Positions 8,411-31,750 are shown, counted from the first letter of the stretch. The stretch is DNA of 36,183 nucleotides from Minisyncoccia bacterium (GCA_041485465.1 JBGPJO010000006.1:1-36183), one strand, 5' to 3'. The notes: a model not told the origin generated them from the letters alone. Numbers and translations: made by a program.

Positions 8411-8413
8411 ATT

Positions 8414-14005: not shown

Positions 14006-14494
14006 TTAATGTGGCGTATATATAACGGCGCCGTTTTCCGCTCCGGGGGCGCAGACGGCAACCCGGTTATTATTATCCGTATTTTTTATAACATTGTAAC
14101 CGGTTTCGGTATCCGAATAGGTAATCGGGTCAACGGGAATGTCGGAGAGGTATTTTTTGTTGTTGGTTAATTCTGAAAGTGCCACCGTGCACGATCCCCC
14201 GGTTTTACAGATAGTGAAGGCGTCACTAAGAATTACCGTAGTGCAATCAGTTAGTGTTCCATTCGGAATCGCGGCAGGCAGAGACCCGTGATTATCTAGG
14301 GCGTATTGATCAATGGCGCTCAAAATGGTGGCGATATCAATCTGACGCTCCGCATTTCGCGTATCAGCTAGTTGTTTACCTGGGTTAAGGGCAAACACAG
14401 TAATACCCGCGAGAATGGTAAGAGCGGCGACTGCAAGCAATATCTCTATCAAAGTAAAAGCGCTTTTGGTGCCAACATAGCCAAGAGTCTTCAT
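14006..14494 (-). CDS. Type IV pilin-like protein
   Basis: ATG 14494; class III signal SA|FTLIEIL with hydrophobic helix; four Cys. Confidence 0.9.
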   Translation of the reverse strand: MKTLGYVGTKSAFTLIEILLAVAALTILAGITVFALNPGKQLADTRNAERQIDIATILSAIDQYALDNHGSLPAAIPNGTLTDCTTVILSDAFTICKTGGSCTVALSELTNNKKYLSDIPVDPITYSDTETGYNVIKNTDNNNRVAVCAPGAENGAVIYTPH

Positions 14495-14501
14495 ACTTCT
14501 C

Positions 14502-14975
14502 CTAGCGAGTAACCGAGATGGTCGCGGTCTCCGCAAGCGGCGCACAGACGGTAATACGGTTATCTGAATCTTTCCACGCCAAGTAGCCGGTAAAGTACGG
14601 ATCCGAAAGTGAAGGATCAATAGGGAGAGTGACTAAGAATTGTTTTGAAGCGGTTAAGCTACTGAGAGAAATGCCCGTACAGTTATCAACGTCTTTGCAA
14701 ATCCCGAAATAATTATCATTGAATGTTTTGTCTGTACACGATGGATCGTCAATTGAGCGGAGTGTTCCCGGTAGGGAGCCATTTTTTATTTGATATTGAA
14801 TAATGGCGCTTGAAATAGCCTCGACGTCCGAGCGCCTCTCGGCATCCCTTGTTTCGGCAAGTTGTCGGGCGGGATTGATGGCAACAATCACAATACCCGC
14901 GAGAATGGCTATCGTGGCAACCACCAAAAGAATTTCAAGAAGAGTAAATCCTCGGTCTAATGACTGTTTCGTCAT
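14502..14975 (-). CDS. Type IV pilin-like protein (paralog of 14006-14494)
   Basis: RG|FTLLEILLVVA...INPARQLAETRDAERRSD; four Cys. Confidence 0.92.
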   Translation of the reverse strand: MTKQSLDRGFTLLEILLVVATIAILAGIVIVAINPARQLAETRDAERRSDVEAISSAIIQYQIKNGSLPGTLRSIDDPSCTDKTFNDNYFGICKDVDNCTGISLSSLTASKQFLVTLPIDPSLSDPYFTGYLAWKDSDNRITVCAPLAETATISVTR

Positions 14976-15077
14976 ACACCTATAACGGTTCTATTTTAAG
15001 AATACTGTATAAGTATACCGTATTGCTGTTTGCTTGGTAGAGAGATCTTGGTTTTTAGTGGATAACATAGGCATCAT

Positions 15078-15542
15078 TTAAAAATCGGCTACTTCTTGCC
15101 AGTTGGCAGCGGTAATCGAGGTTGTTGTTCCCGTTTCATGTATGGTGGTAGTTACGGAAGCGCTGATCTTTACCTTGCGGACAACGGATTCGACAAAACC
15201 GGAGGCTTTAACCAGATCTTCTGACGGAGCACTTTCTTCAGTGGTGAATTCGCAATGCCCGTAACCGAAATCGATCCCTCCCGCTTGCGGGAGGGATTCG
15301 GTATTTTTTATTGTAAGAAGGCCTGATTCGGCACAAGCGTCAGCAAGCGCTTGAGCGCGCAGCGATTCTTCACGTACAATGGTATTTCGAGCCGCATTGG
15401 CGCCTGCTTCAAGAATAAAAAGGGCGCTTCCAAGCGCAACAGCACCGATGATAAGAACGCTCAGTAGTGTCAAATAACCAGCATTTTTTCTGACACTCTT
15501 TAAAATATTTTTTATTTTGTTAGCGTGGGTTTGCTGTTCCAT
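15078..15542 (-). CDS. Minor pilin, PilX/GspK-like
   Basis: AG|YLTLLS without Glu5, AQALADACAESGL, terminal WQEV; likely start ATG 15542. Confidence 0.8.
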   Translation of the reverse strand: MEQQTHANKIKNILKSVRKNAGYLTLLSVLIIGAVALGSALFILEAGANAARNTIVREESLRAQALADACAESGLLTIKNTESLPQAGGIDFGYGHCEFTTEESAPSEDLVKASGFVESVVRKVKISASVTTTIHETGTTTSITAANWQEVADF

Positions 15543-16029
15543 AAAATGTGTCTGAATAATTAAGCTCGTTTCTTCCTCCTTGATTTCGCGCACTTGCCAT
15601 AAACTCGACGCGGATAGAGCCAGACGTTGTTGTCCCGCCGAGATTTTTGAAAAGCAGATCAGTGATTTTGACCTCGGGAGAGGAGAGGACGTTTACGGGA
15701 TTCAAGCCTTCTTCCATATTGATCGTACCGTCAAGAAGGGTGATAGTCGTTGGATCGCGCGAACTGTCTTTAGAATGAATGCTAAGAATTCCCGCACTTT
15801 CTCCAGGAAGCGGTCCATCTATCGAATCGGCGTTTTTAATACTTTCCGTAAGTATCCTCATAATCTGAGAACCCGCATCCTCGACTCTTCTTACCGCCTC
15901 ATATTTTGCTTGGTTCGAAATTACGGTAATGAAAAGGGTGCTTGTGACGCTAAGTAGGATTGCGGCCATGCTGACGTACAGAATAAGTTCAATCAGTGTA
16001 AATCCTTTCTCTGTAAATTTTTTTTTCAT
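15520..16029 (-). CDS. Minor pilin, PilW/GspJ-like
   Basis: KG|FTLIELILY prepilin motif; position in the minor-pilin operon. Confidence 0.85.
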   Translation of the reverse strand: MKKKFTEKGFTLIELILYVSMAAILLSVTSTLFITVISNQAKYEAVRRVEDAGSQIMRILTESIKNADSIDGPLPGESAGILSIHSKDSSRDPTTITLLDGTINMEEGLNPVNVLSSPEVKITDLLFKNLGGTTTSGSIRVEFMASARNQGGRNELNYSDTFYGTANPR

Positions 16030-16034
16030 TGCGG

Positions 16035-16466
16035 TTATTTCCAGTTGGTAAGATATGTGTCGAGTGAGACGGAACCGCTTCGACCCTCTCCGTCGGTCCA
16101 GGAGACATTCGCCGTGATCTCTTTTTTCCCCACGTCGACCGTTTGTATCGTGATTGTTCTGGTGTAGATATTTTCGATTATGTCGCTTCCGGGAGTAAGC
16201 GACCAGCTGCCGGTTGCCATGCTAAGACCGTATGATCCGTCATTAATAGTGGCGAAATCTTGATCGCGTATTTCTCGAATGGCCTCAAGCCCTTCTTCTC
16301 CAAGATAGAGAGATTTTGACTCTATGACCGTGACTATTTCGTTATTTTGCCCGTAAAGAAGTGCCTCAATGATGAGGACGACAATCACGCCGAATAAAGC
16401 AAGCGAGAGCAGGGGCTCGAGAATGGTAAATCCTGTCTTAGTATTTTTATTCGATGACGATAACAC
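16035..16466 (-). CDS. Minor pilin, PilV/GspI-like
   Basis: TG|FTILE motif, LGEEGLEAIR, YTRTITI, terminal YLTNWK; GTG start at 16466 inferred. Confidence 0.82.
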   Translation of the reverse strand: MLSSSNKNTKTGFTILEPLLSLALFGVIVVLIIEALLYGQNNEIVTVIESKSLYLGEEGLEAIREIRDQDFATINDGSYGLSMATGSWSLTPGSDIIENIYTRTITIQTVDVGKKEITANVSWTDGEGRSGSVSLDTYLTNWK

Positions 16467-16896
16467 CTTTTTCGTTGACTGAAATTGTCTTTGATTCTCC
16501 GATAGGGGAGGACAACAGTGTCGTTGCCCCGGTACTTTCCGGGTAACCGGAAACTTTACTGAAGATAAATTCCTGCTGTCCCGAGACGGTGGTATTGAAC
16601 ATGGTGGTAGTCTCATCAAAATTTGCGTCTCGTGCCGCGTAAGCATTTCCCTTAAAGAGTATCAGTTTATCGTCTTCTATTTTCACTCCCCACGGCGAAT
16701 CTTCTGAAACGGCACTTGAAAGCTCTTCTGCTCTGTAAATCATATCTTTGAGGGAGGCGCTGGCAATTTCTAAATCATTTCTGGCTGGTAGATTTTCGTA
16801 TGTAGCAAGAGAAAGGGTTGCGATAGCGGCAATAAAAGCGACGGAAAGCAGTATTTCAAGAAGGGTAAAACCTCCTACTCCAAAATTTTTTTCCAT
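16447..16896 (-). CDS. Minor pilin, FimT/FimU/GspH-like
   Basis: GG|FTLLEILL motif; first gene of the minor-pilin series. Confidence 0.85.
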   Translation of the reverse strand: MEKNFGVGGFTLLEILLSVAFIAAIATLSLATYENLPARNDLEIASASLKDMIYRAEELSSAVSEDSPWGVKIEDDKLILFKGNAYAARDANFDETTTMFNTTVSGQQEFIFSKVSGYPESTGATTLLSSPIGESKTISVNEKGVIVIE

Positions 16897-16898
16897 AA

Positions 16899-17996
16899 TC
16901 AGTGTCGGTTAATGCCGCCGATCAAATCATAGATGGGTAGTATCACGGCAAGAGCGACCGAGACGACCGCAATCCAGACGATAAAGAGAAGCATCGGTTC
17001 AAGAATGACACCGAGGTTTCTCGTCGTCGTATCTGACTTGTCTTCAAAAACAAGTCCGACTTTAAGGAGGACCTCTGAGAGATTCCCTGACTTGCTGCCT
17101 GTTATTATAAGTTGCTGAATCGGCGGCGGAATGAGTCGATCCGCTTTCTTAAATGAGGTAAAACTTTTTTCGAGTGAATTGCCGTCAGTCAAATTTTTTC
17201 GCATATGAGCATACAACTTTTTATATTGGTCGGCTTGGGTTGCTTCTTCAAGAGAGGAAAGGGCTTCGAGAATGGGAATACCGCTATCAAGAAGCCCACC
17301 GAGAATCGAACCGAATCGGGCAAGCTCAACTTCCTGAAGCAGACGGTTTACGCCAGGAATCGAGGAGAGAATGTATTCGCCGATTTTTTTAGTCGCAGAC
17401 AAAAAGAAAAGAATATAGAAAAGAAAGCCGAGTGCGACAAGGAAAAGAGGAATTGCGATACTGCCGTATTTTGAAAGAAAAGTTCCGAAAGAGAGAAGAA
17501 TTTTCGTAACAAGCGGCAATTTCAGCTTAAGTTGGCTGAAAAGCGTGGCAAGGCGGGGAAGAATAAACCATGAGACGCCAATACCGACGACAAGCGTAAC
17601 CCCGAAAACAAACCCGGGATACATAAGGGCTGAACGAACCTTTGACTTAAAGGTTCTCTGTTTCTCTTCCTGTTCGCCAAGCATCTTGAAATTTTTAACC
17701 AATTGACCGGTTTGTTCTCCGATCCGGATCAACGACGACACGCGTTTCGGAAAAAGACCGCTATTTTCGAAAACTGTCCACAGTGGCAATCCGAGACTAA
17801 GTTCTTCTTCCATTTTTCCGATAATGATTTTCATGCGCTTCGTTCGAACACTTTCTTTAATCGATTGAAGCGCACTTGACACATCAACTCCCGCCCCGAG
17901 CAGTAATCCCAGATTTTCCGTCAAATAATCAAGATCTTTTTCAATACCAAACCGTCCCAGAAATTTTAGGGGGGTCTTGTTATCCGTGCTTGCCAT
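16899..17996 (-). CDS. pilC: Type IV pilus/T2SS platform protein (PilC/GspF)
   Basis: LIRIGEQTGQL, ALMYP, LEPMLL...ILPIY; three TM segments. Confidence 0.92.
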   Translation of the reverse strand: MASTDNKTPLKFLGRFGIEKDLDYLTENLGLLLGAGVDVSSALQSIKESVRTKRMKIIIGKMEEELSLGLPLWTVFENSGLFPKRVSSLIRIGEQTGQLVKNFKMLGEQEEKQRTFKSKVRSALMYPGFVFGVTLVVGIGVSWFILPRLATLFSQLKLKLPLVTKILLSFGTFLSKYGSIAIPLFLVALGFLFYILFFLSATKKIGEYILSSIPGVNRLLQEVELARFGSILGGLLDSGIPILEALSSLEEATQADQYKKLYAHMRKNLTDGNSLEKSFTSFKKADRLIPPPIQQLIITGSKSGNLSEVLLKVGLVFEDKSDTTTRNLGVILEPMLLFIVWIAVVSVALAVILPIYDLIGGINRH

Positions 17997-18003
17997 GATA
18001 TCT

Positions 18004-19668
18004 CTATGATTCGGGTGCCGCGACCCGCAAGAGCTCTTCTAAAGTGGTGATGCCCCCCTTTACTTTCGAAAGGCCGTCTTCGAAGAGAGAACGGGCTCCC
18101 TCTTTTCTCGCAAGCTCTGAGACTGCCGATTTTGCCGGCCGCACGGCGATCAGTTCCTGCATTTCCGAAGAATTTCGAATCAATTCAAAGATGGCGATTC
18201 GCCCAAGATAGCCGGTGAAGTGGCACGCCTCGCATCCTTTCCCCCGATACAGCGTTATCTCTTGTTGATTTTTAAAATAAGGCGAAGCCTTCGGCATTTT
18301 TGCCTCAATTTCTTGTGTGCTCGCGGTGTAACTTATTTTGCAATGCCCACAGATTTTGCGTACCAGCCGCTGCGCAATAATGAGCTCGAGTGTTGATCCG
18401 AGAAGAAAGGGTTCAATGCCGATGTCGAGAAGCCGTGGAATGGTCGTTGCCGCATCATTCGCGTGGAACGTCGAAAAAAGCAGGTGCCCCGTCAACGCGG
18501 CGTTGACGGCGATTTCGGCGGTCTCGCTATCCCTGATTTCGCCGACAAGAACGATGTCGGGGTCTTGTCTCACAATTGAACGCAGGCCGCGCGCAAAAGT
18601 GAGATCCGTCTGGGGGTTTGTCTGCATCTGATTAATGCCCTCGATTTTATATTCAACCGGATCTTCAATGGTTGTGATATTTATTTCACTGCTATTTAAG
18701 GAATTAAGGAGGGCGTAGAGTGTCGTTGTTTTTCCGCTACCCGTCGGACCGGTAACCAAAATCATCCCAAACGGTTTCTTGGCCGCCTCCATGAGGATTT
18801 TCTGGTCATCAGTATTAAGCCCTAACGTGTCGGTCGTGAAGCTCGTTATATATTGCGACAAGAGCCGAAGCGCTACTTTCTCGCCATCTAAGGTTGGTGC
18901 GATCGAAACACGGATGTTAACCACTCCCTCATTTCGGGTATGTCTCAGAGAACCGTCTTGAGCCTTGAAGTGCTCGTCGATGGGTAGGTGAGCAAGAATT
19001 TTTATGCGGTTCAAGATATTCTCGTAATATTTTTTCGGTATTCTTGTCGCTTCAAGAAGCACGCCGTCAATCCGGAAACGGATTACCGTTTCTTTTTCTC
19101 TCGGTTCGAAGTGTATATCCGACGCATTGAGATGAACGGCATCCTCGATGATTTCATCAATTACTCCCGGGACGAAAGCACTTTTCGATTCGAACATCTC
19201 CGCAAAACGGACAGCGAGAGGTTTTTCATAGAGTTTTAACGCAAGGTCAATCGTTTCAGGAAGCGCATACTGAACAGTCACTTCCTTTCCCGTGAATATT
19301 TTTTGAAGTTCCGTGAGTAGGTTTTCAGCGAGTGGTTTATCGGAGGCGATCGTTACCAAGAGGGGATTTTCGGAAATGAAAATAACTCGGTAATCGCGAG
19401 CGACTTTTTCGGGGATTTTTTGAATCTGGTCGCGGCTTGTCGGCACGGAGTCTTTCTCCGCGTATTTGACGCCAAACGTCTCGGCAACCGATTGTCCCAA
19501 TAAATCCCTGGTAAGGAGACCGCGCTCAATGAGGGCTTCTGCAAGGGAAATTTTTTTATCCGCGGCTATTTTTTGGGCCGCCTCGAATTCTTCTGCTCCG
19601 AGGTAGCTCCCTTTAAGGAGGATATCTCTTAATTTTTCCTCTGGAATTAGTCCGTCAATTGGAGGCAT
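18004..19668 (-). CDS. pilB: Type IV pilus assembly ATPase (PilB/GspE)
   Basis: ASDIHFEP, Walker A GPTGSGKTT, TIEDPVE, RQDPDIVLVGEIRD, TGHLLFSTFH, tetracysteine motif. Confidence 0.93.
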   Translation of the reverse strand: MPPIDGLIPEEKLRDILLKGSYLGAEEFEAAQKIAADKKISLAEALIERGLLTRDLLGQSVAETFGVKYAEKDSVPTSRDQIQKIPEKVARDYRVIFISENPLLVTIASDKPLAENLLTELQKIFTGKEVTVQYALPETIDLALKLYEKPLAVRFAEMFESKSAFVPGVIDEIIEDAVHLNASDIHFEPREKETVIRFRIDGVLLEATRIPKKYYENILNRIKILAHLPIDEHFKAQDGSLRHTRNEGVVNIRVSIAPTLDGEKVALRLLSQYITSFTTDTLGLNTDDQKILMEAAKKPFGMILVTGPTGSGKTTTLYALLNSLNSSEINITTIEDPVEYKIEGINQMQTNPQTDLTFARGLRSIVRQDPDIVLVGEIRDSETAEIAVNAALTGHLLFSTFHANDAATTIPRLLDIGIEPFLLGSTLELIIAQRLVRKICGHCKISYTASTQEIEAKMPKASPYFKNQQEITLYRGKGCEACHFTGYLGRIAIFELIRNSSEMQELIAVRPAKSAVSELARKEGARSLFEDGLSKVKGGITTLEELLRVAAPES

Positions 19669-19779
19669 GAAAATTGTTTAATAAGTTTTCAATGCAAATG
19701 AAAAAGTTCTTTAGCCCGACGTGTTATTGTAATGATACTACAAAGATTTCTCCATACCTATAAGGGTTATTAGATTTTA

Positions 19780-19807
19780 TTGTCAGAGGATTCTTTTTTG
19801 TTAGAAT
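19780..19807 (+). promoter_or_regulatory. Putative promoter of tRNA-Val
   Basis: TTGTCA-N16-TAGAAT, 11 nt before the tRNA. Confidence 0.6.
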
Positions 19808-19818
19808 GCGGAAAACCT

Positions 19819-19891
19819 GCACCCTTAGCTCAGTTGGTAGAGCGTTCCCTTCACACGGGAAAGGTCATAGGTTCGAATCCTATAGGGTGCA
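19819..19891 (+). tRNA. tRNA-Val(CAC)
   Basis: Acceptor GCACCCT/AGGGTGC; anticodon arm TTCCC-TTCACAC-GGGAA; T-arm ATAGG-TTCGAAT-CCTAT. Confidence 0.95.
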
Positions 19892-19993
19892 CCGGTCTTT
19901 GCGAAAGTTTATTAAGTTTCAAAAGTGATGTAGAGTGGTGAGGTTTTGAAAAGGGAAGAGATGAGTATAATTATTTCCGATTGAGCGCTCAGT

Positions 19994-20064
19994 CGGGGTG
20001 TAGTACAGGGGTAGTATACACGCTTCGGGTGCGTGAGACCCGAGTTCGATTCTCGGCACCCCGA
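19994..20064 (+). tRNA. tRNA-Pro(CGG)
   Basis: Acceptor CGGGGTG/CACCCCG; anticodon arm CACGC-TTCGGGT-GCGTG; T-arm CCGAG-TTCGATT-CTCGG; TATAAT at 19966-19971. Confidence 0.93.
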
Positions 20065-20091
20065 CTAAGCGCTCAACCCCGTCTACATGAG

Positions 20092-20162
20092 GGGCCTATA
20101 GTTCAGTGGTAAAACGCCGCATTCGCATTGCGGAGGCGGGGGTTCGATTCCCCCTAGGTCCA
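20092..20162 (+). tRNA. tRNA-Ala(CGC)
   Basis: Acceptor GGGCCTA/TAGGTCC with G3:U70; anticodon arm CCGCA-TTCGCAT-TGCGG; T-arm GGGGG-TTCGATT-CCCCC. Confidence 0.93.
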
Positions 20163-20173
20163 CAAAAAAGACA

Positions 20174-20623
20174 TTATTTTACGATAACAGTACCGCGATC
20201 GTTAGGATTTATATGATTGTGGTATTTCCAAGCCCCAATCTTGGTAAATGTGTATTCGTAAATTCCATCTCCATGCGCCAAGGCTAGGTGCAGGAACAAG
20301 AATTTATCTTTCATATTTATTATTTCCTTTTGATCAAACCCGGGCAAATCGGTATGGGTGGGGTGGGGATCGGAAGCAACCCACATTGGCCGACCGGAAA
20401 CATTAATCCAGGCTACTGTAGTTCCAACCTTGACCGCTACTGTTTGAGGGTCAAATCCTTTTTCTGTATAGCGAACTTGAACTTGAGCGATTTGCGCGAC
20501 AGAAGTGGTTGCCGAAGAGCCATTTTCTAAACGCTGATAGTTCTTGTATGGCAACCATATCCCAATTACCCAAACAGCCGATAAAACACCGAGAATTAAA
20601 AGGATATTTCTCAAGTCTATCAT
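20174..20623 (-). CDS. Membrane-anchored cupredoxin-fold protein (His-rich, no Cys)
   Basis: N-terminal TM helix; GFDPQTVAVKVGTTVAWIN, WVASDPHPTH, YEYTFTKIGAWKYHNH...GTVIV; likely start ATG 20623. Confidence 0.85.
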   Translation of the reverse strand: MIDLRNILLILGVLSAVWVIGIWLPYKNYQRLENGSSATTSVAQIAQVQVRYTEKGFDPQTVAVKVGTTVAWINVSGRPMWVASDPHPTHTDLPGFDQKEIINMKDKFLFLHLALAHGDGIYEYTFTKIGAWKYHNHINPNDRGTVIVK

Positions 20624-20680
20624 CTGATAAGTATGTTTAACTCCATTCCATTTTATCATATAATTACACTAGTATTTAAA

Positions 20681-21499
20681 ATGAAGATCGATTTTATTTC
20701 AGATATCAATAAAGATCTTGGGGCTGATCTTAATTACCCTAAAGTTGACCGTTTTATACTTAAAGTGCTCTGGGGACATTTAGTGGTTTTTCTGCTTTTC
20801 ATTATTGCCGACGCCATTGTAAAACTACCGAGCATTTATCCGAGCCCATTCGGCTGGAGAGTAATTAGCTACAACGAAGCGTTCTATGCATTTTTGCTCG
20901 CCATAGTAATAACCCTTTTTCCAACACTTCTCATAAATATAATAAGAAACCGTTATTTCTGGCGGGTGATCGTAACGTTTGCATTGACAATTTACTCCTA
21001 CTTGCTTGTTTTTATTACCGGAGGATCAATCGAAGCGCATTTTCATTTCTTTATCATTGCCGCCCTGCTTGTCGTCTATGCTGATTGGAGGCTAGGCTGG
21101 ATTCTTTTGGTCTTAACAGGATTGCATCATGGCATTTTAAATTATTTTGAACCGGGGTGGGTCTATTTTTATGGTCGTAACGATTTTTCAGTGATCTCTC
21201 ATGCTTTGCCGGTCTTGGTGGCGGTAATCTTTACAACTATGCTTTGTAACAATAATAGAAATGGAATTATTTCACTTAAGGACAGTAAAAAAAGTCTTGA
21301 GACGAGAACTGCGGAGTTAGAGAAACTAAAAGGTAGTCTTGAGCATAGAGTGGGGGAGCAAACCACCGATCTTGAGAATAAAGTTTCCGAACTCCAAAAT
21401 ATTAACAAACACATGATTGATCGCGAGTTAAGAATGGCTGAATTGAAAAAAGAGAACGAAGAATTAAAGAAGAAAATTGAAAATTCTCCGAGACAGTGA
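20681..21499 (+). CDS. His-rich integral membrane sensor-like protein with C-terminal coiled coil and no enzymatic output domain
   Basis: About six TM segments with LWGH, IEAHFHFF, YADW, GLHHG, ISHA; ends in LEHRVGEQT...DRELRMAELKKE; ATG 20681. Confidence 0.8.
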   Translation: MKIDFISDINKDLGADLNYPKVDRFILKVLWGHLVVFLLFIIADAIVKLPSIYPSPFGWRVISYNEAFYAFLLAIVITLFPTLLINIIRNRYFWRVIVTFALTIYSYLLVFITGGSIEAHFHFFIIAALLVVYADWRLGWILLVLTGLHHGILNYFEPGWVYFYGRNDFSVISHALPVLVAVIFTTMLCNNNRNGIISLKDSKKSLETRTAELEKLKGSLEHRVGEQTTDLENKVSELQNINKHMIDRELRMAELKKENEELKKKIENSPRQ

Positions 21500-23781
21500 T
21501 TATGTCTCAAGAAGCACAAATTATTGATGTAAAACAGGTCGCTCTTGGCACAGTCGAATTGGTTTTGGGGCTTAGCAAAGAATTCGATTTTCAAGCCGGC
21601 CAATATATTCGAGTTATAGTGCCGCGTCTTATTTCTGAAGACCCGCGCGGCAACAGCCGCGATTTTTCAATTGCTTCTTCTCCCCGTAATGAAAACAAGC
21701 TGTCTATTGCTTTTCGAATATCAGAAAGCCCTTTTAAGCAGAGTATTTTAAGATCACAGCCTGGCACAAAAGTTACTGTTGAGGGCCCTTTTGGCAATTT
21801 TATATTACCGGCAGATACTCAAAAGTCCGTTGTCTTTTTAGCTGGCGGTATCGGTATCACTCCATTTTTGAGCATGATCCGCTTTGTCACGGAAAAAAAA
21901 TTGCCCCACAAGATAAAATTGCTTTATCTGAATAAAAACCCCGAGAGTGGCGCATATTTGTCGGAATTGAAAAAACTTGAAAAGCAAAATCCAAATTTCG
22001 TTCTAAATGAAAAATTCGGACTGCTCGATCGAGAATTTATCGAAAAAAGTGTCAATACCACAGGGAACATCTGGTACATCGCCGGCCCGCCCTCGATGGC
22101 GAAAGAGGCGAGAATAATACTTGACCAACTGGGAATCACCAATGACGATATTTTGATTGAGGAATTTACGGGCTACCCCTTTCCATCAACAGACGGCAAA
22201 GAGCTCCCGGCGATCACGCCCGAGCATTCAATCGCCGATATTGAAGCGATATTTCAAGCCTTAAATAAATCCGTTCTTGTTTCGGAGACTGACACCAACG
22301 GCACCATTATTTATGCCAATGATAAGTTTGTGGAAACCTCAAAATACAGTCTCGAGGAGTTAATCGGACAAAATCACAGGATTCTTAAATCAGGTTTCCA
22401 CAAAGCGTCATTCTATGAGGATTTGTGGAAGACTATATCAGAGGGAAAAGTATGGAGAGGCGAGATAAAAAATAAAGCAAAAGACGGCACCTTTTACTGG
22501 GTTGATGCCAATATTGCTCCGGTTCTAGATAAAAACGGGAAATCAGTGAAATACATTGCTATCAGGTTTTTAATCACCGAACGCAAAATGATGGAGGAAA
22601 AGCTAAAAACTCAAATGGAAGATACTGAAAAAACAAAATTAGCCATTCTCAATCTGCTTGAAGATATTGAAGAAGAAAAAGAAGGCGTGGAGCGCAAAGT
22701 TGTTTTGCGCACCCGAGAGCTTGAAGTGGAACGGTCCCGTCTCCTCGCTTCCATCAACAGTCTCTCTTTTGGTTTTATTATTGCTGACCTGAATCATCGT
22801 ATTCTTCTTAAGAATAATGCGATGTTGGAGCTTTTTGGCGCAGAGAGTAAAGAGATTATCTCGATTGAAAATATCTCGAGTCTTTTTGGGAAAGAATTTG
22901 ACATTAAAGGAGAAGCGGAGCGGTGCGTGAAAGGGGGAAAGGTCTGTGAGATAAAAGAAATAGTTTTCGGCAAGAAATTTCTCCGTGGCATTATTGCTCC
23001 GATTGTGATGGCGCACGACCATGGCGAGATCATTGGTTATGTGTTTTTGCTCGAAGACATCACTGAAGCAAAAGTGATGGAAAGGAGCCGCGAAGAATTT
23101 TTTGCTGTTGCGTCTCATGAACTGCGCACGCCGCTGACCGCTATCCGCGGAAATGCCGAAATGATTCTTGATATGTATGCCGACAAGGTGACCGATAAAG
23201 ACATGAAAGAGATGCTTGTAGATATTGATACATCAAGTGTGCGGCTCATCGAGATCGTAAACGATTTTCTTGAAGTTTCTCGTCTTGAACAGGGAAGGAT
23301 TCAAATCAAGAAAGAAGTATTCAATATCTCCGAAGTGATAGAGAGAGTGATTAGGAATTTAGAGGGGAGCGCGAAGAAAAGGGGACTCCCCCTTCTTTAT
23401 GTAGTGCCTAAAGCGCCTCTTACCAATGTTATTGCCGATAAAAACAGAGTTGAACAGATAATGGTGAACTTAATCAGCAATGCTATAAAATTTACTGAAA
23501 AAGGGAGTGTCAGTATCAATGTGGAGTCAATTCCCAACTTTTTGAAAATTCAAGTCATTGACACCGGTATTGGTATCTCGCCCCATAATCAAACTCTACT
23601 TTTCAGAAAATTCCAGCAGGCGGGAGAAAAAATTCTTGCACGGGACATTACTCAAGGAACGGGTCTCGGTCTCTATATCTCTCAACTTCTGGTATCGAGT
23701 ATGGGAGGAACCATTGCTCTTGAAAAAAGTACTTTTGGTGAGGGCAGTACATTTACATTTACCATTCCGATTGCCACATGA
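21496..23781 (+). CDS. FNR-like FAD/NAD(P)H oxidoreductase-PAS-PAS-histidine kinase fusion
   Basis: FQAGQY, RDFSIAS, EGPFG, AGGIGITP, YIAGPP, EEF; PAS YANDKF...ELIGQNHRILKSG...KNKAKDGTFYWV; H-box SHELRTPL; NLISNAIKFT, DTGIGI, GTGLGL, GEGSTF. Confidence 0.93.
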   Translation: MIMSQEAQIIDVKQVALGTVELVLGLSKEFDFQAGQYIRVIVPRLISEDPRGNSRDFSIASSPRNENKLSIAFRISESPFKQSILRSQPGTKVTVEGPFGNFILPADTQKSVVFLAGGIGITPFLSMIRFVTEKKLPHKIKLLYLNKNPESGAYLSELKKLEKQNPNFVLNEKFGLLDREFIEKSVNTTGNIWYIAGPPSMAKEARIILDQLGITNDDILIEEFTGYPFPSTDGKELPAITPEHSIADIEAIFQALNKSVLVSETDTNGTIIYANDKFVETSKYSLEELIGQNHRILKSGFHKASFYEDLWKTISEGKVWRGEIKNKAKDGTFYWVDANIAPVLDKNGKSVKYIAIRFLITERKMMEEKLKTQMEDTEKTKLAILNLLEDIEEEKEGVERKVVLRTRELEVERSRLLASINSLSFGFIIADLNHRILLKNNAMLELFGAESKEIISIENISSLFGKEFDIKGEAERCVKGGKVCEIKEIVFGKKFLRGIIAPIVMAHDHGEIIGYVFLLEDITEAKVMERSREEFFAVASHELRTPLTAIRGNAEMILDMYADKVTDKDMKEMLVDIDTSSVRLIEIVNDFLEVSRLEQGRIQIKKEVFNISEVIERVIRNLEGSAKKRGLPLLYVVPKAPLTNVIADKNRVEQIMVNLISNAIKFTEKGSVSINVESIPNFLKIQVIDTGIGISPHNQTLLFRKFQQAGEKILARDITQGTGLGLYISQLLVSSMGGTIALEKSTFGEGSTFTFTIPIAT

Positions 23782-23849
23782 TAAACTTTAATCCAAAGAG
23801 TCTTGCGCTGTCGCACCTTACTCTACTAGTAGAGCCAAATATCTAATTT

Positions 23850-24242
23850 ATGAAAAAAATATACCTCGTCGAGGATGATACATATGTAAGCCGAATGTAT
23901 GAAAGGGCATTTCGTTTCAGCGGCTACGAGGTTGAGGTTGTGGGCGACGGTGAGGTGGCCCTCAAACAACTTACAGAAATGAAGAATCTCCCCTCAGCAA
24001 TTGTACTTGATGCCATGATACCGAATATGAGCGGTCTTGATGTACTGCGTAATATAAAAAAAGATTCTCGTCTCAAAAATATTCCCGTAATCATCCTGAC
24101 CAATTCTTTTCTGGAAGAAAACGCAGAACAATTTATATCTTCGGGGGCCGATTTATATCTGGTTAAAATAGAGAATACCCAAAAAGACACTGTCCAAAAG
24201 ATCCATGATCTGATAGAGAATTACAAGGGCCAGAAAAAATAG
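23850..24242 (+). CDS. Single-domain response regulator (CheY-like)
   Basis: LVEDD, VLDAMIP phosphoacceptor, ILTN, YLVK. Confidence 0.9.
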   Translation: MKKIYLVEDDTYVSRMYERAFRFSGYEVEVVGDGEVALKQLTEMKNLPSAIVLDAMIPNMSGLDVLRNIKKDSRLKNIPVIILTNSFLEENAEQFISSGADLYLVKIENTQKDTVQKIHDLIENYKGQKK

Positions 24243-24277
24243 AAAATAACTGATTAATTTCTCCAAAAAGAAACCTC

Positions 24278-24676
24278 ATGCCTCCTATTTTTATAGCTGA
24301 AGACGATCCTCTGATGGGGAGGATGTACGAGCGAGCATTCCGCTTAAATGGTTATGATTTAAAAATGGCGTTCGACGGAGAACAGGCGCTCTCGATGCTA
24401 CTCGCAGCAAACCCGAAGCCCTCTGTCATCATTCTCGATGTGATGATGCCGAAGATGAGCGGTTTTGACGTTCTTAAAAAAATAAAGGAAGATGCGGATC
24501 TTAAAAATATTCCAGTCATTCTTCTCACGAATCTCGCGGGCCAAGAGGACGCCCAAAAAGGGATCTCGATGGGTGCGCTCATGTATCTTGTGAAGAGCGA
24601 GTACAACCCAAAGCAAATTGTCGATACGATTAAAAAAGTGCTTGAGACAACGCCCGCTCCTCAAGGAGGCGCATAA
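24278..24676 (+). CDS. Single-domain response regulator (CheY-like)
   Basis: IAEDD, ILDVMMPKMSG, LLTNL, YLVKS. Confidence 0.92.
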   Translation: MPPIFIAEDDPLMGRMYERAFRLNGYDLKMAFDGEQALSMLLAANPKPSVIILDVMMPKMSGFDVLKKIKEDADLKNIPVILLTNLAGQEDAQKGISMGALMYLVKSEYNPKQIVDTIKKVLETTPAPQGGA

Positions 24677-24697
24677 AAGCTCCGCTCACTGTTTCTT

Positions 24698-25813
24698 TTA
24701 GCGCACGGATTGGTAGCCGCCCTTTACTCCGCTTTTTGAGAGGATGACTTGCCAGAGTTCTATGCGTCTCGCGCGAAACGTGCCGGCGCAGGAGAGAAGG
24801 TAGTATTTCCACATCCTGTAGAAGTGCTCAGAATATTTTTTTGAAAGCGTTGGCCAGGCATGGTTGAAATTTTCAAACCAAGTCATAAGTGTCTTGTCAT
24901 AGTCGGCGCCAAAATTATGCCAGTCTTCCATGACGAAGATACCTTCGATCGCTTTTCCAATTTGAGGAATCGATGGAAGCATCCCATTGGGAAAGATGTA
25001 TTTCGAAATCCATGGATCGCCGGCATGTCGCGAGAGATTATCACCAATAGTGTGGAGAAGAAAAAGGCCGTCGTTCTTGAGGAGTTTTGCGGCAATTTCC
25101 ATGTAGGTGCGGTAGTTTTTAAGACCAACATGCTCAAACATACCGAGTGACACTATATGATCAAACTGGCCTTCGACCTTCCGGTAATCTTGAAGCCTGA
25201 TTTCAACGGGCAATCTATTTGCAAGTTCTTTCCCGAGCAGTGCTTGTTCTTTCGAAACGGTTATACCGAGAACTTTTGCTCCGTACTTCTCGGCGGCGAA
25301 AATAGCAAAACTACCCCAGCCGCAACCGATATCAAGAACATAATCTCCTTTCTTCAGTCCTATTTTACGGCAGACGAGGTCAAGTTTATTTTCTTGCGCC
25401 TGATCAAGTGTTTTCGCATTCTTCCAATAGCCGCAGGTATAGGTGAGGTGCGTATCAAGCATCGCTTTATATAAGTCGTTCCCAATATCGTAATGGCGTT
25501 CTCCGATCTGAAACGCGCGAGTTTCGTCCTGCAGGTTAAAAAATAATGCCTTGAGGTATTGAAATAAAGCTTCAAGAGATGTCACTTTCTCATCAAGGCG
25601 CGCCTCTAGAATTTTTTCAAAAAATTGATCAAGTGATGGCGTATCCCACCACCCCTCCATATAGGTTTCTCCAAGAGCAAGAGAGGCCCCTTGGAACATT
25701 CGCGAGTAGAATCTTTTATCATGGACCTCTATATCCCAAGGTTCTTTGCCGCCGACGGTGACGCCAGCAATCGAAAGCAGGTTTTTTACCCATGTTTGTG
25801 CACTTGTTTCCAT
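24698..25813 (-). CDS. cfa: Cyclopropane-fatty-acyl-phospholipid synthase
   Basis: LGETYMEGWWD, HYDIGNDLY, YTCGYW, VLDIGCGWG, SLGMFEHVG, KYIFPNG, RMWKYYLLSCAGTFRAR. Confidence 0.93.
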   Translation of the reverse strand: METSAQTWVKNLLSIAGVTVGGKEPWDIEVHDKRFYSRMFQGASLALGETYMEGWWDTPSLDQFFEKILEARLDEKVTSLEALFQYLKALFFNLQDETRAFQIGERHYDIGNDLYKAMLDTHLTYTCGYWKNAKTLDQAQENKLDLVCRKIGLKKGDYVLDIGCGWGSFAIFAAEKYGAKVLGITVSKEQALLGKELANRLPVEIRLQDYRKVEGQFDHIVSLGMFEHVGLKNYRTYMEIAAKLLKNDGLFLLHTIGDNLSRHAGDPWISKYIFPNGMLPSIPQIGKAIEGIFVMEDWHNFGADYDKTLMTWFENFNHAWPTLSKKYSEHFYRMWKYYLLSCAGTFRARRIELWQVILSKSGVKGGYQSVR

Positions 25814-25927: not shown

Positions 25928-26347
25928 TTACATTCGCACTCCGCCCATCGGGGAAGTACCCCCGGTTGCGCTCATAGGCATACCGCTTCCGCCCTTTAGC
26001 ATAAAGCCAAGTGCGACGAGTATGACACCGAGTACCACGTGAAGCAAATGATCTGCCATGTTCGTCTCAACCAATCCAAGAATTAATCCGCCCGAGGGAA
26101 CCAGGATAAATCCGAGGACCGCGACCAAAAGGTATATGATACCGAAGACTTTCATAGCGAGCGCCGCTGAACTTTCGTACATTAGCGCGACGACGATAAG
26201 GACAATGCCGATTGCAAGATGCACGAGGTCATGGATATGGTTGGTGTCGAAAAGTGCCCCCGCTCCGACGATCGGATTCGGGATCCATCCCAAAATACCG
26301 ACAAGAACGAATATCACTCCAAACACCAACGCCGCTGTTTTTGCCAT
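25928..26347 (-). CDS. DUF4383-like membrane protein
   Basis: FGVIFVLVGILG, NHIHDLVHLAIG, GIIYLLVAVLG, NMADHLLH; promoter TTGAGA-N16-TATCCT (26404-26431). Confidence 0.8.
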   Translation of the reverse strand: MAKTAALVFGVIFVLVGILGWIPNPIVGAGALFDTNHIHDLVHLAIGIVLIVVALMYESSAALAMKVFGIIYLLVAVLGFILVPSGGLILGLVETNMADHLLHVVLGVILVALGFMLKGGSGMPMSATGGTSPMGGVRM

Positions 26348-26900: not shown

Positions 26901-29900
26901 TTACGCGTTTCCATGAAGGCGTCTTACTTTGGGGGACCGGTAGAAAAGGACGGGTATGAAAATGAGGGAGAGCACCATCGAGAAGGTCAGTCCGAACATG
27001 ATCGTAAAGGCGATCGGACCCCAGAGGGCGGACGCGCCGGCAAGCGGCACCATGCCGACAACCGTTGTTACGGTGGTAAGAACAATCGGACGAAGTCTCG
27101 TTGCGGCGGATTCAACGACGATATCAATCAAAGATTCGGTTTTGTGATCGGCGAGGTAGTGAACCATTGAATCGAGAAGAATGATAGCGTGATTGATAAT
27201 AATGCCGGCAAGCGCGATAAAGCCGAGTATCGAGGGGAATGAAAGCGGCTTGAACGAAATGGCAAGTCCGGTCATAACGCCGATCAGGGAAAGCGGAACA
27301 ATTACAATGAGGTAGCTGGTATACCTGAATGAATTGAAGACAAGAACAAGGATACCGAGCATTAAGACAAGGCCTGCGACAAGCGCTATGAACATTTCGC
27401 GGAAGGATTTGTTGACGTCGTCATTTTCTCCGGCAAAAGCAACCGTTACACCATCGGGGATATGGAGCTCGGATTTCTTTTTATCAAAGGCGCTATTGAT
27501 TTCGGGCGCGGTTACGCCCACTTTGAGGTCGCTTGAAACGGTGATGATCCGCTTTTTGTCTTCATGATTAATAACGGCGTTACTCTTTTGAATGGTCGCA
27601 GTAATAACAGAACCAAGAAGCACGGGACCATTTTGAGTCTCAATCGGAATTTGCCGTAACGCGTCGATTGTCGCCTCGGTCGTGGTGTCAGGATTGGTAT
27701 CGCCGTTTAAATTAAGTTTGACGACAACATCGATGTCTTTGCCGACCGTTTTTATGGTCGTTGCGATCGTGCCATTAACCGCACTACGCAGTGTCTGCGC
27801 GATAACCTGCGGATTAAGGCCGAGTTCTGAGGCTTTGGCCCGATCGACGGTGAGCGCGAACTCGGTACCCCCGTTCGTATTTGAGGTATTGATATTAATT
27901 GTGCCGGGAATATTCTGAAGTATATGTTCGACGTTTATCGCCGTCTGGTCGAGATCGCCGAAATCTTCCCCGGTGATTTTAATCAAAACGGGTGCACCCG
28001 AGGGCGGGCCATTATTAGGCTCCTCGACCCTAATATCCGCTGACTTAATCGTTGAGACTTCTTTGCGGATTGCCTCAACCATCTCAGCGCTTGTGCGCGT
28101 GCGGTCTTTTTTATTGATAAGATTAATAGTGATATTTGCGATTTTTGCGCCGCTTGCAGGGGTAGTGCTAAAAGAAGAACTTTGCCCGACCGTCGTCACG
28201 AACGAAGCTATTTCAGGGAATTTCTTACGGTCATAGAGGATTTCTTCGATTTGCCGTATCGCTTGATCGGTATAGGCAAGTGGCGTACCTTCAGGCTTTT
28301 GAAGTTCTATATAGAGATAATCAATATTATCTTGCGGGAAAAACGTCACCTTGACGATCCCGACTATTGGAAACGAAAGGGTAATAACGAATAAGATGCC
28401 GACTACCCACAAAAACCGTTTCTGGACGCGTTTATTCTCGAGAATGTTTCTGAGAAATTTCTTATACCATTCCCGGACGATATCATTGTAGCTCTCCTGG
28501 AGCGCCTCAAAGCGGTTGAGGGAGCGCTTGGTGAAAAGTATGGCAATTAAGGGAACGATGCCGAGCGCGACAAAGATTGAAGCGAGCAGTACGAAAATGA
28601 TGGTAAAGGGAATACTTGCAATAAATTGCCCGGTAATGCCCGAGATGAAAAAGAGCGGCACGAAAACGGCAACCGTTGTCATTGTTCCGGCAAACAGAGG
28701 CCATGAGTATTCCCGTAGTGAGGCAATCGCCGCTTCCCGCGCGTCCCCGAATTTTTTATAGCGGGTATGTATCGCTTCCGTCATGACAATGCCGGAGTCA
28801 ACGAGAATACCGATTGCAAGAATAAGAGAAAAAAGAGAAACGAAGTTGATGCTGTTGCCCGAATATAAAAGGCCGACGAATGCCATCAGGAATGAAAGGG
28901 GAATGGCAAGCCCAGCAACCACCGATTCACGCCAGCCGATCGTGAGAAAGAGGACGAGCATGACGAGGAGAACGGTCTCAAGACCGACGCGGGAGAGTTC
29001 GGTGAGATCTTTTTGAACTAAGTCGCCGCGATCGAATGATATAACAACCTGGCTTCCCGAAAGAGTTGTCTTTTTAAGGTCGTTTAATTTACTTTTTACA
29101 TTGCTTGAAATTTTTGTGACATCACCGCCGCTTCGTTTAAAAACGGAAAGAGTGAGTGCTTGTTCGGACGGTACGCCCTTCAAAGAAACACGAGAGAAGG
29201 TCGTCGCTTTTTCAAGTCCGTCCGAGACAAGGGCGACATCGCGGACGTAAATAGGCGTGCCATTTTTAGTGGTAAGGACGATATCGCCGATTTCTGAAGG
29301 ATTGTCGATTGAGCCGTTGAACTTCACGGCGTAATCGATACCGTCAACGGTGATTGAGCCGATCGGAAGGGATGCGTTTGCGGCAGAAAGGGCTGAAATA
29401 ACATCGACAAGGCGAATACCGTAGGTATCGAGAGCTTCTTTACGGACAACAACTTGCGCTTGCCGGTCGCGAACGCCGGACACCTCGACTCTTGATACGC
29501 CCCCAACCGTTTTCAGCTCTTCTTTAAGAGTATCCCCAAGTCTGACAAGGTCGGGGGGCGTGATGTCGGACGAAATTGAGACGATCAGAATTGGCTGATC
29601 GCTGAAACTGACTTTGGTGACAATCGGACTGTTCGCTTCTTTCGGCAGGTCCGGCTTTGCCCGGTCAACAGCATCTTTAAGATCGTTGATTGATTTATCG
29701 ATATCGGCGCTTGCCAAAAACTGAACCGAGATAATGGAAACACCCTCACGCGAACTTGAAGTCAGTTTATCGAGATTGTCGACATTGTTGACCTCATCTT
29801 CTATTTTATTGGTGATCAGTTTTTCCGTGTCTTCAGCGGAAGCTCCGGGAAGGGTTGTGGTAACAATTCCAATCGGCACTTTCACTTCAGGAGCCGACTC

Positions 29901-30005
29901 CTTCGGAATAGTGAGAAGCGCATAGCTTCCGGAAACGATGAGCGCCGTGATGAGGATATAGCTGAAAGCCCTTTTGTCTATGAAGAATGTCCAAAACGGG
30001 GTCAT
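26901..30005 (-). CDS. RND efflux transporter permease (AcrB/SwrC family)
   Basis: 1034 aa, two repeats; PGASAE, LAIGILVDSGIV, TTVAVFVP, FFPQD, TRLRPIVLT. Confidence 0.93.
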   Translation of the reverse strand: MTPFWTFFIDKRAFSYILITALIVSGSYALLTIPKESAPEVKVPIGIVTTTLPGASAEDTEKLITNKIEDEVNNVDNLDKLTSSSREGVSIISVQFLASADIDKSINDLKDAVDRAKPDLPKEANSPIVTKVSFSDQPILIVSISSDITPPDLVRLGDTLKEELKTVGGVSRVEVSGVRDRQAQVVVRKEALDTYGIRLVDVISALSAANASLPIGSITVDGIDYAVKFNGSIDNPSEIGDIVLTTKNGTPIYVRDVALVSDGLEKATTFSRVSLKGVPSEQALTLSVFKRSGGDVTKISSNVKSKLNDLKKTTLSGSQVVISFDRGDLVQKDLTELSRVGLETVLLVMLVLFLTIGWRESVVAGLAIPLSFLMAFVGLLYSGNSINFVSLFSLILAIGILVDSGIVMTEAIHTRYKKFGDAREAAIASLREYSWPLFAGTMTTVAVFVPLFFISGITGQFIASIPFTIIFVLLASIFVALGIVPLIAILFTKRSLNRFEALQESYNDIVREWYKKFLRNILENKRVQKRFLWVVGILFVITLSFPIVGIVKVTFFPQDNIDYLYIELQKPEGTPLAYTDQAIRQIEEILYDRKKFPEIASFVTTVGQSSSFSTTPASGAKIANITINLINKKDRTRTSAEMVEAIRKEVSTIKSADIRVEEPNNGPPSGAPVLIKITGEDFGDLDQTAINVEHILQNIPGTININTSNTNGGTEFALTVDRAKASELGLNPQVIAQTLRSAVNGTIATTIKTVGKDIDVVVKLNLNGDTNPDTTTEATIDALRQIPIETQNGPVLLGSVITATIQKSNAVINHEDKKRIITVSSDLKVGVTAPEINSAFDKKKSELHIPDGVTVAFAGENDDVNKSFREMFIALVAGLVLMLGILVLVFNSFRYTSYLIVIVPLSLIGVMTGLAISFKPLSFPSILGFIALAGIIINHAIILLDSMVHYLADHKTESLIDIVVESAATRLRPIVLTTVTTVVGMVPLAGASALWGPIAFTIMFGLTFSMVLSLIFIPVLFYRSPKVRRLHGNA

Positions 30006-31603: not shown

Positions 31604-31750
31604 GATCTTAAATGCCTATACAGGGCTCTCTCTTTATACTAATTTGATAAATCCAAATTAACATGAAAACACGTTTACGTCAATAGTTTCCTGTTGCCTA
31701 ATATTTTTCCACAGTGGAAGTACAATTTTATTTGTTACACTCTGATGACG

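Follow-up and report, generated by a model that had tools for sequence, protein, structure and literature searches.

The stretch of DNA considered here, hereafter the window, is an entire contig of 36,183 nucleotides from a Minisyncoccia bacterium (GCA_041485465.1, JBGPJO010000006.1:1-36183), the genome of which measures 646 kb and is 97.5% complete. Our subject is a cluster of five genes between positions 20,174 and 24,676, all of which are confirmed by an open reading frame (ORF) listing of the window: a cupredoxin-like ORF on the minus strand (20174-20659) and, on the plus strand, the ORFs of a membrane protein (20633-21499), a sensor kinase (21496-23781), and two receivers (23850-24242 and 24278-24676). 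To our knowledge, bacteria with genomes so small lack respiratory chains and quinones, and the ways in which they sense oxygen and redox state are largely obscure. The reading that we favor, and to which we give about an even chance, is that the cluster encodes a split, two-input sensory phosphorelay, where an outward-facing metal or redox input and an inward-facing input of reduced nicotinamide adenine dinucleotide (phosphate), NAD(P)H, and flavin would act through two CheY-like receivers. The cluster is a new combination of known parts and not an established electron chain, and literature searches of limited scope, only one of which was aimed at the fusion itself, found no description of the FNR-PAS-kinase fusion, of the system, or of its membrane domain.

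The starts of the two divergent genes are set by the N-termini of their homologues. The cupredoxin-like protein begins at the ATG at 20623 (MIDLRN..., minus strand) and the membrane protein at the ATG at 20681 (MKIDF...), so that the intergenic region between them (20624..20680) is exactly 57 bp long, the distance that a first-pass annotation of this DNA had given. This region contains a promoter-like site, TTAACT-16-TATAAT, at 20637-20664; promoter-like sites in 19600-25000 are not enriched over shuffles (14 vs a mean of 11.6), and the counts of a promoter and terminator scan of this interval do not differ from those of shuffled sequence. At its other end, the membrane gene stops with a TGA (21497-21499) that overlaps a GTG at 21496, which agrees with the GTGA overlap reported earlier. 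An ATG at 21502 is an alternative start for the kinase; because the database gene call (P0121) has 759 aa rather than 761 and implies this start, the junction is either a 4-bp overlap or a 2-bp gap.

Two frames that abut with a 4-bp overlap might also be one gene broken by a frameshift at 21496-21499, and fused membrane-module kinases do exist elsewhere. We regard this as highly improbable and reject it: dozens of stand-alone homologues of the membrane protein, 260-300 aa long, have the same coiled-coil motif as their C-terminal end; FNR-PAS kinases, P0129 (755 aa) for one, start at the corresponding residue and are preceded by no membrane part; and no fusion of the membrane module with FNR occurs among 80 longer forms.

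The kinase opens with an FNR-like dehydrogenase domain for flavin adenine dinucleotide (FAD) and NAD(P)H (aa 1-228; 21496..22179), recognized by the motifs RDFS, GGIGITPF, GPPSM, and EEFTGY. It is followed by a first PAS domain, PAS1, which profile matches assign to the FAD-type redox PAS domains (aa 249-364; 22240..22587), by a coiled-coil linker with a second PAS domain (22690..23070, limits approximate, from two Pfam PAS stretches), and by a kinase core made of HisKA (aa 532-600) and HATPase_c (aa 648-760), at 23089..23775. Over the 761 aa, Pfam reports NAD_binding_1 (42.7 bits), NAD_binding_6 (24.5), two PAS domains, HisKA (68.1), and HATPase_c (85.8), whereas FAD_binding_6 reaches 18.7 bits, under its cut-off of 21.1, as against 26.6 bits in the homologue from locus L013. 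The H-box SHELRTPL can be read from the translation of HisKA, matches of the PnpS/WalK type span aa 375-758, and NCBIfam adds no specific family. The order of an FNR-PAS-kinase and then two stand-alone receivers, as first annotated, is borne out by the Pfam domains.

The best PDB matches of the FNR domain are 8qq5, 8qq1, and 8qq7 (E 2e-15 to 1e-14), with the dehydrogenase domain of SpNOX in first place (2e-15); 8QQ7 is the NADPH oxidase of Streptococcus pneumoniae (PMC11031084). Relatives of the domain were counted by eye over 119 listed non-self proteins. The closest (47-57% identity) are 22 fusions of ~430 aa to a YedZ/MsrQ-like membrane domain, two of which carry PF01794; another 30 join FNR to PAS, some of them with GAF or kinase domains as well, 5 are RnfD-like fusions, and most of those remaining (29-38% identity) are Ferric_reduct/FAD_binding_8 proteins. 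Across 10 FNR-PAS proteins the motifs RxFS, GGIGxTPF, GPxxM, and EEFxGY are invariant or near-invariant. The FNR family is present in 89 of 401 genomes sampled across the phylum, a tally that includes one genome flagged as unpublished (G214), which enters no other claim, and a metagenome scan with the FNR-PAS profile recovered mostly generic FNR genes, one pattern being GGIGITPF, with both FNR and PAS only in L125 and L126.

PAS1 matches PAS-A of MmoS (3ewk, 8.8e-43), Aer (8dik, 2.4e-22), and NifL (2gj3, 7.3e-17). MmoS binds FAD, and its pocket residues are given as T103, H132, N164, and R195 (PMC9668731); counted along the profile alignment, these fall on T265, H294, N326, and R357 of the kinase, three of which are invariant in the 10 FNR-PAS proteins while R357 is near-invariant. 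Read from its sequence, the kinase looks like a self-reducing flavin redox sensor that brings its own reductase, with NAD(P)H probably reducing the PAS flavin by way of the FNR flavin. A LOV-type photoreceptor was also considered for PAS1 and rejected, LOV domains scoring 1e-12 to 1e-7 and the position of the adduct Cys being His.

Another FNR fusion is encoded elsewhere in the genome (G000:C11:13949-16053; L089:1495-3605), where a polytopic membrane domain and FNR form a protein of 505 aa. Relatives of this layout carry PF03116 (RnfD/NqrB-like), a gene for an ApbE-like flavin transferase lies directly upstream, and the fusion is possibly a membrane flavin redox module in a genome without a respiratory chain.

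The membrane protein (20681-21499) combines a predicted sensor module of six transmembrane (TM) helices (aa 1-200; 20681..21280) with a cytoplasmic coiled-coil tail (21281..21499), continuous with TM6, that ends in the motif 'NKHMIDRELRMAELKKENEELK'. Its AlphaFold model, with a predicted local distance difference test (pLDDT) score of 95.2, places helices at residues 19-46, 64-84, 91-112, 117-133, 136-156, and 168-268; six of them are membrane helices, and the last runs on as a helix of ~100 residues, the cytoplasmic part of which is long. The six His residues of the membrane part, H33, H120, H122, H149, H150, and H174, agree with the earlier description of a protein of about six TM segments and six His. 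Conservation was taken from the 119 listed non-self sequences of a near-length protein search that gave 165 homologues. Here, the expectation that the His residues are conserved holds for H120, H149, H150, and H174, which are invariant, but not for H122 and H33, which are kept in 97 and 89 of the 119, respectively. The invariant columns are R95, G114, I117, E118, H120, F121, F123, F124, D135, W136, R137, L138, H149, H150, L153, P158, Y164, G165, N167, and H174, and the family signature can be written as GGxIExHF(H/Q)FF...YxDW...(H)H...H. The named near-length homologue records are metagenome-assembled genomes of the Patescibacteria type, and 8 of the 119 proteins already carry PAS, HisKA, or GGDEF. 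In the model, E118/H120, H149/H150, and H174 would all sit in the outer half of the bundle and at one depth; this orientation follows from the fusion of outputs at the C-terminus and from the basic loops 89-95 and 191-204, which face inward. Model and alignment together would put the invariant His and Glu at one level, and two bis-His tiers across the membrane are not evident.

The window membrane protein matches no Pfam or NCBIfam model, and PF01794 in particular has no match at E <= 0.01. The same holds for the MASE models, which do not match 18 of its relatives either, at E <= 0.001. In none of these 18 scanned proteins, which comprise methyl-accepting chemotaxis proteins (MCPs), GGDEF-EAL or GGDEF proteins, kinases and hybrid kinases, and TM-PAS proteins, plus the neighboring FNR and kinase genes of L013 and L027, does Pfam recognize anything in the membrane region. 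In protein-language feature space, the closest clusters (0.91-0.94) bear MASE11, MASE6, MASE7, and MASE2 labels in part, with 13-85% of their members labelled as MASE. When the 119-sequence profile was compared by hhalign with the FRD/YedZ-like protein P0122, the probability was 0.6% and the alignment covered solely the GGIG motif of P0122. Foldseek with the membrane model found nothing at E <= 0.001, ImcA being on top, and a second, Foldseek-independent fold search gave AC9 (Z 11.8, 195 residues aligned), ImcA (11.3), and AC5 (10.8), matches that are weak evidence of kinship because Z values below ~13 are common for helical bundles. The top rows of either fold search hold no FRD or NOX chain, and top rows alone cannot exclude one.

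The wider family was collected by a scan of a genome collection, which gave 112 relatives of the module, 80 of which were kept. Distant relatives, with 23-49% identity over the best segment, usually part of the domain, occur in Actinomycetota, Chloroflexota, Silvimonas, and Laribacter; those of Actinomycetota, Chloroflexota, and Betaproteobacteria take the form of MCPs, GGDEF-EAL proteins, and kinases. The core can be aligned in 49 of 52 distant members; G114, G115, I117, E118, H120, F121, Y133, and H150 are kept in all 49, and F124 and W136 in 48. Every one of the 80 longer homologues bears signalling outputs (kinase, receiver, MCP, GGDEF, PAS, GAF, sigma-54), and none of them has FNR or any other flavin or redox domain; overall, the module is found fused to kinase, hybrid kinase, MCP, GGDEF, GGDEF-EAL, PAS, GAF, and sigma-54 outputs. 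On these comparisons, the membrane protein is a member of an uncurated family of putative 6-TM sensor domains, without ferric-reductase likeness. The coiled-coil motif at its C-terminus (aa ~245-268), N(K/x)LM(V/I)(G/D)REL(K/R)M.ELK, also stands at the C-termini of P0123, P0026, and P0043 and is common to three protein types, in which the coiled coil follows the TM module, TM-PAS, or FNR-PAS. It may be a docking or output element.

The divergent gene (20174..20623, minus strand) encodes a predicted membrane-anchored protein of 149 aa, with an N-terminal MIDLRN tail and anchor helix (aa 4-34) and a beta-sandwich (aa 48-148). Its model (pLDDT 86.3) shows the N-terminal helix 4-34 followed by the beta-sandwich, and the Foldseek matches, namely plastocyanin 2plt (E 4.4e-8, template-modelling score 0.75 on the target) and purple cupredoxin and amicyanin (1e-7 to 1e-8), identify a cupredoxin Greek-key fold, amicyanin and pseudoazurin being matched at probability 1.00. 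Among profiles, Cupredoxin_1 of Pfam scores 17.5 bits, under its cut-off of 27, and Amicyanin TIGR02657 21.2 bits, under its cut-off of 110.2, while a profile of 11 locus-derived homologues finds amicyanin as its best PDB match (E 5.5e-9). In that alignment the positions of His53, Cys92, His95, and Met98 of amicyanin, which we take to be its type-1 copper ligands, with the numbering checked by PDB mutant names, hold Met, Asn, Asn, and Asp. Cys is absent from the cupredoxin domain, and each of the four type-1 copper ligands is missing; lacking the Cys, the domain would have no type-1 electron-transfer copper site. The extracellular cupredoxin of the first-pass annotation therefore survives in its fold but not in its copper ligands, and from sequence and model the outer protein is, as far as we can judge, a cupredoxin by fold only.

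In place of the type-1 site the protein has a set of four His, H87-P88-x-H90 and Y134-H135-x-H137 (HPxH...YHxH, the second motif being aromatic-HxH in the family). H87, P88, H90, G130, H135, and H137 are invariant in 116 sequences. At E <= 0.001 the family comprises 14458 representative clusters, a number that falls to 4796 at <= 1e-10, ordinary cupredoxins being included in both; among the best 150 matches, 119 are <= 300 aa, and HPxH is present in all of these and aromatic-HxH in 118. Those family members that accompany the membrane gene make up a separate subfamily with an IDx(R/K)N tail, seen in 6 of 110 representatives <= 200 aa, and with an extra loop bearing another His. Weak matches to laccase and ascorbate oxidase were also seen (E 0.001-0.03).

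The genome holds further four-His cupredoxin-like genes. One, coding for 166 aa (G000:C11:17893-18399; L226:1498-1998, minus strand), is followed after 3 bp on the same strand by the gene of a 130-aa membrane protein and is divergent from that of a 161-aa membrane protein, both of these proteins being DoxX-like as judged by eye only; it lies ~2.4 kb from the cluster of the RnfD-like-FNR fusion and the ApbE-like gene. Others are at C2:34923-35369 and, weakly, at C7:1657-1938. In two other genomes, an RnfD-like-FNR fusion gene starts within a four-His cupredoxin-like gene, with 4 bp in common (L116:1492-3362, G338:C3; L223:3474-5430, G295:C2); these are 2 of the 20 RnfD-FNR loci fetched, and G338 and G295 are both of one family.

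Gene linkage was followed over 28 loci with close homologues of the module (L007-L034), where the membrane gene stands alone in 17, is a TM-PAS fusion in 2, and is fused to outputs in 9. Synteny counts rest on the 17 stand-alone and 2 TM-PAS loci, i.e., 19 loci other than the window, and related loci among them are not independent. The expectation that the five genes stay together was realized for parts of the cluster and not for the whole. With a hidden Markov model (HMM), a four-His cupredoxin gene was detected immediately next to the membrane gene in 10 of the 17 stand-alone loci: in 7 the pair is divergent, like that of the window, while the cupredoxin gene lies downstream in L017 and upstream in L022 and L028; L012 is cut upstream, so that its cupredoxin neighbor cannot be judged. 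The HMM has no match in the other 70 loci, nor elsewhere in the flanks (~1 Mb, 80 loci). In 6 of the 17 stand-alone loci, kinase and receiver genes are found close to the membrane gene (L007, L009, L010, L011, L012, and L016, L009 having the kinase only, as its contig ends), and both TM-PAS genes have them alongside too, which makes 8 of 19 overall. FNR is beside the membrane gene in 2 of the 19, L013 and L027, directly after the TM-PAS gene. The TM-PAS protein of these two loci carries the FAD-type PAS of the kinase (59% and 56% identical, pocket residues kept), and since the module is fused there to the PAS that follows FNR here, module, FAD-PAS, and FNR appear to have been shuffled among neighboring genes. 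In the phylum-wide sample of 401 genomes, the membrane domain was found in 5, the other four cases being fusions of 452-570 aa, and in none of 60 same-family or same-order genomes, where three matches span the coiled coil alone.

Several of these observations weigh against a two-input phosphorelay. The full five-gene set occurs in the window alone among the 20 loci, and the 10.8 kb of locus L126 include FNR and PAS but neither a membrane gene nor a cupredoxin gene. Many stand-alone homologues of the membrane protein (~215-235 aa) are without the coiled-coil tail, and the window protein has Arg at position 91, where 117 of 119 homologues have His. The membrane and cupredoxin-like proteins do show correlated pairwise distances (r 0.84, a value attained in 1 of 5000 permutations), which speaks for the relay, but the signal comes mostly from two deep groups, and shared ancestry inflates it. 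Finally, BLAST with the window proteins found no kinase or receiver within ~7 kb of the membrane gene in 7 of the 17 stand-alone loci, e.g., beside ATP synthase or aminotransferase genes, and because of these kinase-free loci the membrane/cupredoxin pair can function with no kinase close by and is perhaps not a sensor in those places.

The kinase-free loci also speak for a different arrangement, in which two unrelated units are packed together, the one a pair for the handling or uptake of a metal such as copper, like CopC/CopD or YcnI/YcnJ, and the other an independent cytoplasmic FNR-PAS redox kinase. The existence of the FNR-PAS unit without the membrane gene points the same way, as does the pairing of other four-His cupredoxin paralogues of the genome with other small membrane proteins. 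So does a replacement of the cupredoxin beside the module in three loci (L019:5885-6475, L023:6444-6986, and L026:6443-6967) by a secreted, C-anchored protein of ~175-196 aa, which has the conserved start ADH(E/Q/I)GPE(R/K)IV(E/D)GKY, a predicted mature end of Asp-His, and no Pfam or NCBIfam family; such a neighbor is reminiscent of anchored copper-binding proteins. We nevertheless consider two independent units unlikely. The module family is overwhelmingly a sensor input, as all 80 longer forms attest, and its C-terminal coiled-coil motif is the same as that on TM-PAS and FNR-PAS proteins. In addition, the stop of the membrane gene overlaps the start of the kinase, kinase and receivers are again its neighbors in 8 of 19 loci, and PAS1 of the kinase is found fused to the membrane module in other organisms.

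A further alternative joins all the proteins into a transmembrane electron chain, from NAD(P)H to the FNR FAD, perhaps via the PAS FAD, then to a His-ligated haem or metal in the membrane, the outer four-His protein, and an external acceptor, with the kinase reading the flux. The FNR clade does feed membrane cofactor domains (the 22 YedZ/MsrQ-like and 5 RnfD-like fusions and many Ferric_reduct proteins), with SpNOX as the best structural match; four of the membrane His never vary, the membrane gene overlaps that of the kinase, in L013 and L027 TM-PAS is followed by FNR as a gene of its own, and the four-His cupredoxin family overlaps the RnfD-like-FNR gene in G338 and G295. Of the ferric-reductase/NOX-like chain put forward in the first-pass annotation, the membership of the kinase FNR in the NOX clade is upheld, but the membrane protein does not belong to it: this domain has no sequence relation to FRD/YedZ, its fold neighbors are signalling bundles, and it is fused solely to signalling outputs, never to FNR or redox domains, in its longer forms. 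Moreover, the invariant ligand candidates would share a single level close to the outer face; with H91 on the cytoplasmic side replaced in this protein and H33 in mid-membrane only 75% conserved, no inner relay site is apparent. Without Cys, the outer protein would have no type-1 copper site, 17 of the 19 loci that hold the membrane gene outside the window have no FNR, and the RnfD-FNR overlaps come from one family and from just 2 of 20 loci. We therefore hold an electron chain of this kind to be distinctly improbable. Slightly more doubtful is its extension to a minimal electron wire across the envelope of a bacterium without a respiratory chain, which would serve as a sensor as well and would pass electrons from NAD(P)H to the FNR FAD, to the PAS FAD, to a His-ligated metal or haem in a new 6-TM fold, to a new Cys-less four-His center outside, and on to oxygen, copper, or a host-surface oxidant. 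Were it true, the kinase would read the steady-state redox level of the flavin, that is, the supply of external oxidant against internal reducing power, and the four-His cupredoxins, which also lie beside RnfD-like-FNR and DoxX-like proteins, would be widespread, undescribed extracytoplasmic redox centers in small-genome bacteria.

The two receivers, of 130 aa (23850..24242) and 132 aa (24278..24676), have Response_reg as their only Pfam domain (69.3 and 78.6 bits), and the pocket residues E8-D9-D10, D54, T84, and K106 can be read from both translations. Genome-wide there are three kinases with HisKA and five receiver domains, the latter in ORFs of 131, 140, 149, and 268 aa; two of the kinases and two receiver proteins are thus additional to the locus. 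As all receiver ORFs are only 131-268 aa long, there is no room for a DNA-binding domain. Pilus genes are found near the module elsewhere, in L010 (PilM) and L016 (pilin-like), and the receivers of the window sit near type IV pilus genes; a pilus-directed surface behavior, possibly relevant to host attachment, is a lead for the output. Elsewhere in the genome, the second kinase is followed by a 268-aa double-receiver protein (G000:C10:13729-15183), a kinase/REC-REC layout that also stands beside the module in L010-L012.

In favor of a two-input phosphorelay stand the FNR and FAD-type PAS domains of the kinase with their conserved motifs and pocket residues, the recurrence of FNR with this PAS in several layouts, the use of the membrane module as an input to signalling outputs, the linkage of the four-His cupredoxin gene and of kinase and receivers to the membrane gene, and receivers too short to hold a DNA-binding domain. 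The relay that we favor would work as follows; the analysis shows domain identities, conserved residues, gene linkage, and fusion patterns, whereas the cofactors, contacts, electron direction, and output are what we infer. On the cytosolic side, the soluble kinase would gauge reducing power: its FNR domain would pass electrons from NAD(P)H to FAD and on to the FAD of the adjacent MmoS/Aer/NifL-type PAS, oxygen or another oxidant would re-oxidize the PAS flavin, and the redox state of this flavin would set autophosphorylation. On the membrane side, the outer-leaflet Glu/His site, together with the anchored partner of four-His cupredoxin fold, would sense an extracytoplasmic cue, most likely a metal ion such as copper, or else a metal-dependent redox or gas signal. 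The module would hand this signal through its cytoplasmic coiled coil to the kinase, the gene of which is translationally coupled to it. The kinase would then phosphorylate the two CheY-like single-domain receivers, which would act by protein contacts and not by DNA binding.

The closest known systems to the kinase are MmoS of Methylococcus capsulatus, NifL, and Aer, which share with it the PAS1 match; the flavin-pocket Thr, His, Asn, and Arg named for MmoS and Aer (PMC9668731) are kept in the kinase, and MmoS also has tandem PAS domains upstream of a kinase core. Unlike the window kinase, these proteins have no FNR-type reductase of their own, and their flavin is reduced by other components of the cell; a further difference is that the window kinase is soluble and paired with a separate membrane module. 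Macheroux and colleagues reportedly reduced NifL in vitro in 1998 with NADH via FNR-family enzymes, which would be a precedent for the fused arrangement. SpNOX and the ferric-reductase/MsrQ flavocytochromes share the dehydrogenase fold family, the GGIGITPF motif, and the best PDB match, but here there is no ferric-reductase haem domain, FNR is fused to PAS and kinase, and the adjoining membrane protein is unrelated.

For the membrane module, the likeness is to MASE, MHYT, ImcA, and the 6-TM domains of membrane adenylyl cyclases, in which an N-terminal membrane module precedes varied outputs. MHYT has conserved His near the outer face that are proposed to bind metal, and a similar suggestion can be made for the module. 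It differs from MASE, MHYT, and ImcA in that it matches no Pfam or NCBIfam model and has a Glu/His signature of its own. ImcA is also controlled by a separate metal-sensing membrane partner (PMC10904736). As for the outer protein, it shares with amicyanin, plastocyanin, and EfeO-type Cupredoxin_1 the beta-sandwich, the amicyanin profile match, and the automatic cluster name "EfeO-type cupredoxin-like", whereas the four type-1 ligands of amicyanin and plastocyanin are replaced and the invariant HPxH and aromatic-HxH stand instead. The spacing of its His motifs is reminiscent of multicopper oxidases, to which the sequence matches are weak.

These comparisons indicate why the cluster matters. A kinase that supplies its own reductant to a flavin sensor of the Aer/NifL/MmoS type would explain how such a sensor works without an electron-transport chain. 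The uncurated membrane sensor domain occurs on kinases, chemoreceptors, and cyclic di-GMP enzymes in several phyla, and its ligand would annotate hundreds of signalling proteins. The Cys-less four-His proteins of cupredoxin fold are, in turn, a large uncharacterized family.

The surroundings of the cluster can be described briefly. Three tRNA genes lie just past the 3' end of the cupredoxin-like gene, and directly upstream of them is a type IV pilus cluster (14006-19668) with a PilB-type ATPase carrying a MshEN domain (18004-19668), PilC/T2SSF (16899-17996), a pilin-like gene with an N_methyl motif (14502-14975), and several small family-less ORFs. A serine recombinase/resolvase gene lies at the contig edge (2-928). 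In a comparison with close relatives, these proved too divergent to place an insertion boundary, the best PilB match being 47% identical. A neighboring gene for a CFA synthase had no match in the 4 relatives searched, a result that carries no weight. Two genes downstream of the cluster is that of a DUF4383 membrane protein (25928-26347), which directly adjoins the membrane module in L019 (6483-6848), possibly by chance. The window also contains two tandem GH130 phosphorylase-like genes (6509-10345), an efflux pair of the AcrB/HlyD type (26901-31603), and a gene for a flavodoxin-like, NAD(P)H-dependent reductase of flavin mononucleotide (31694-32335).

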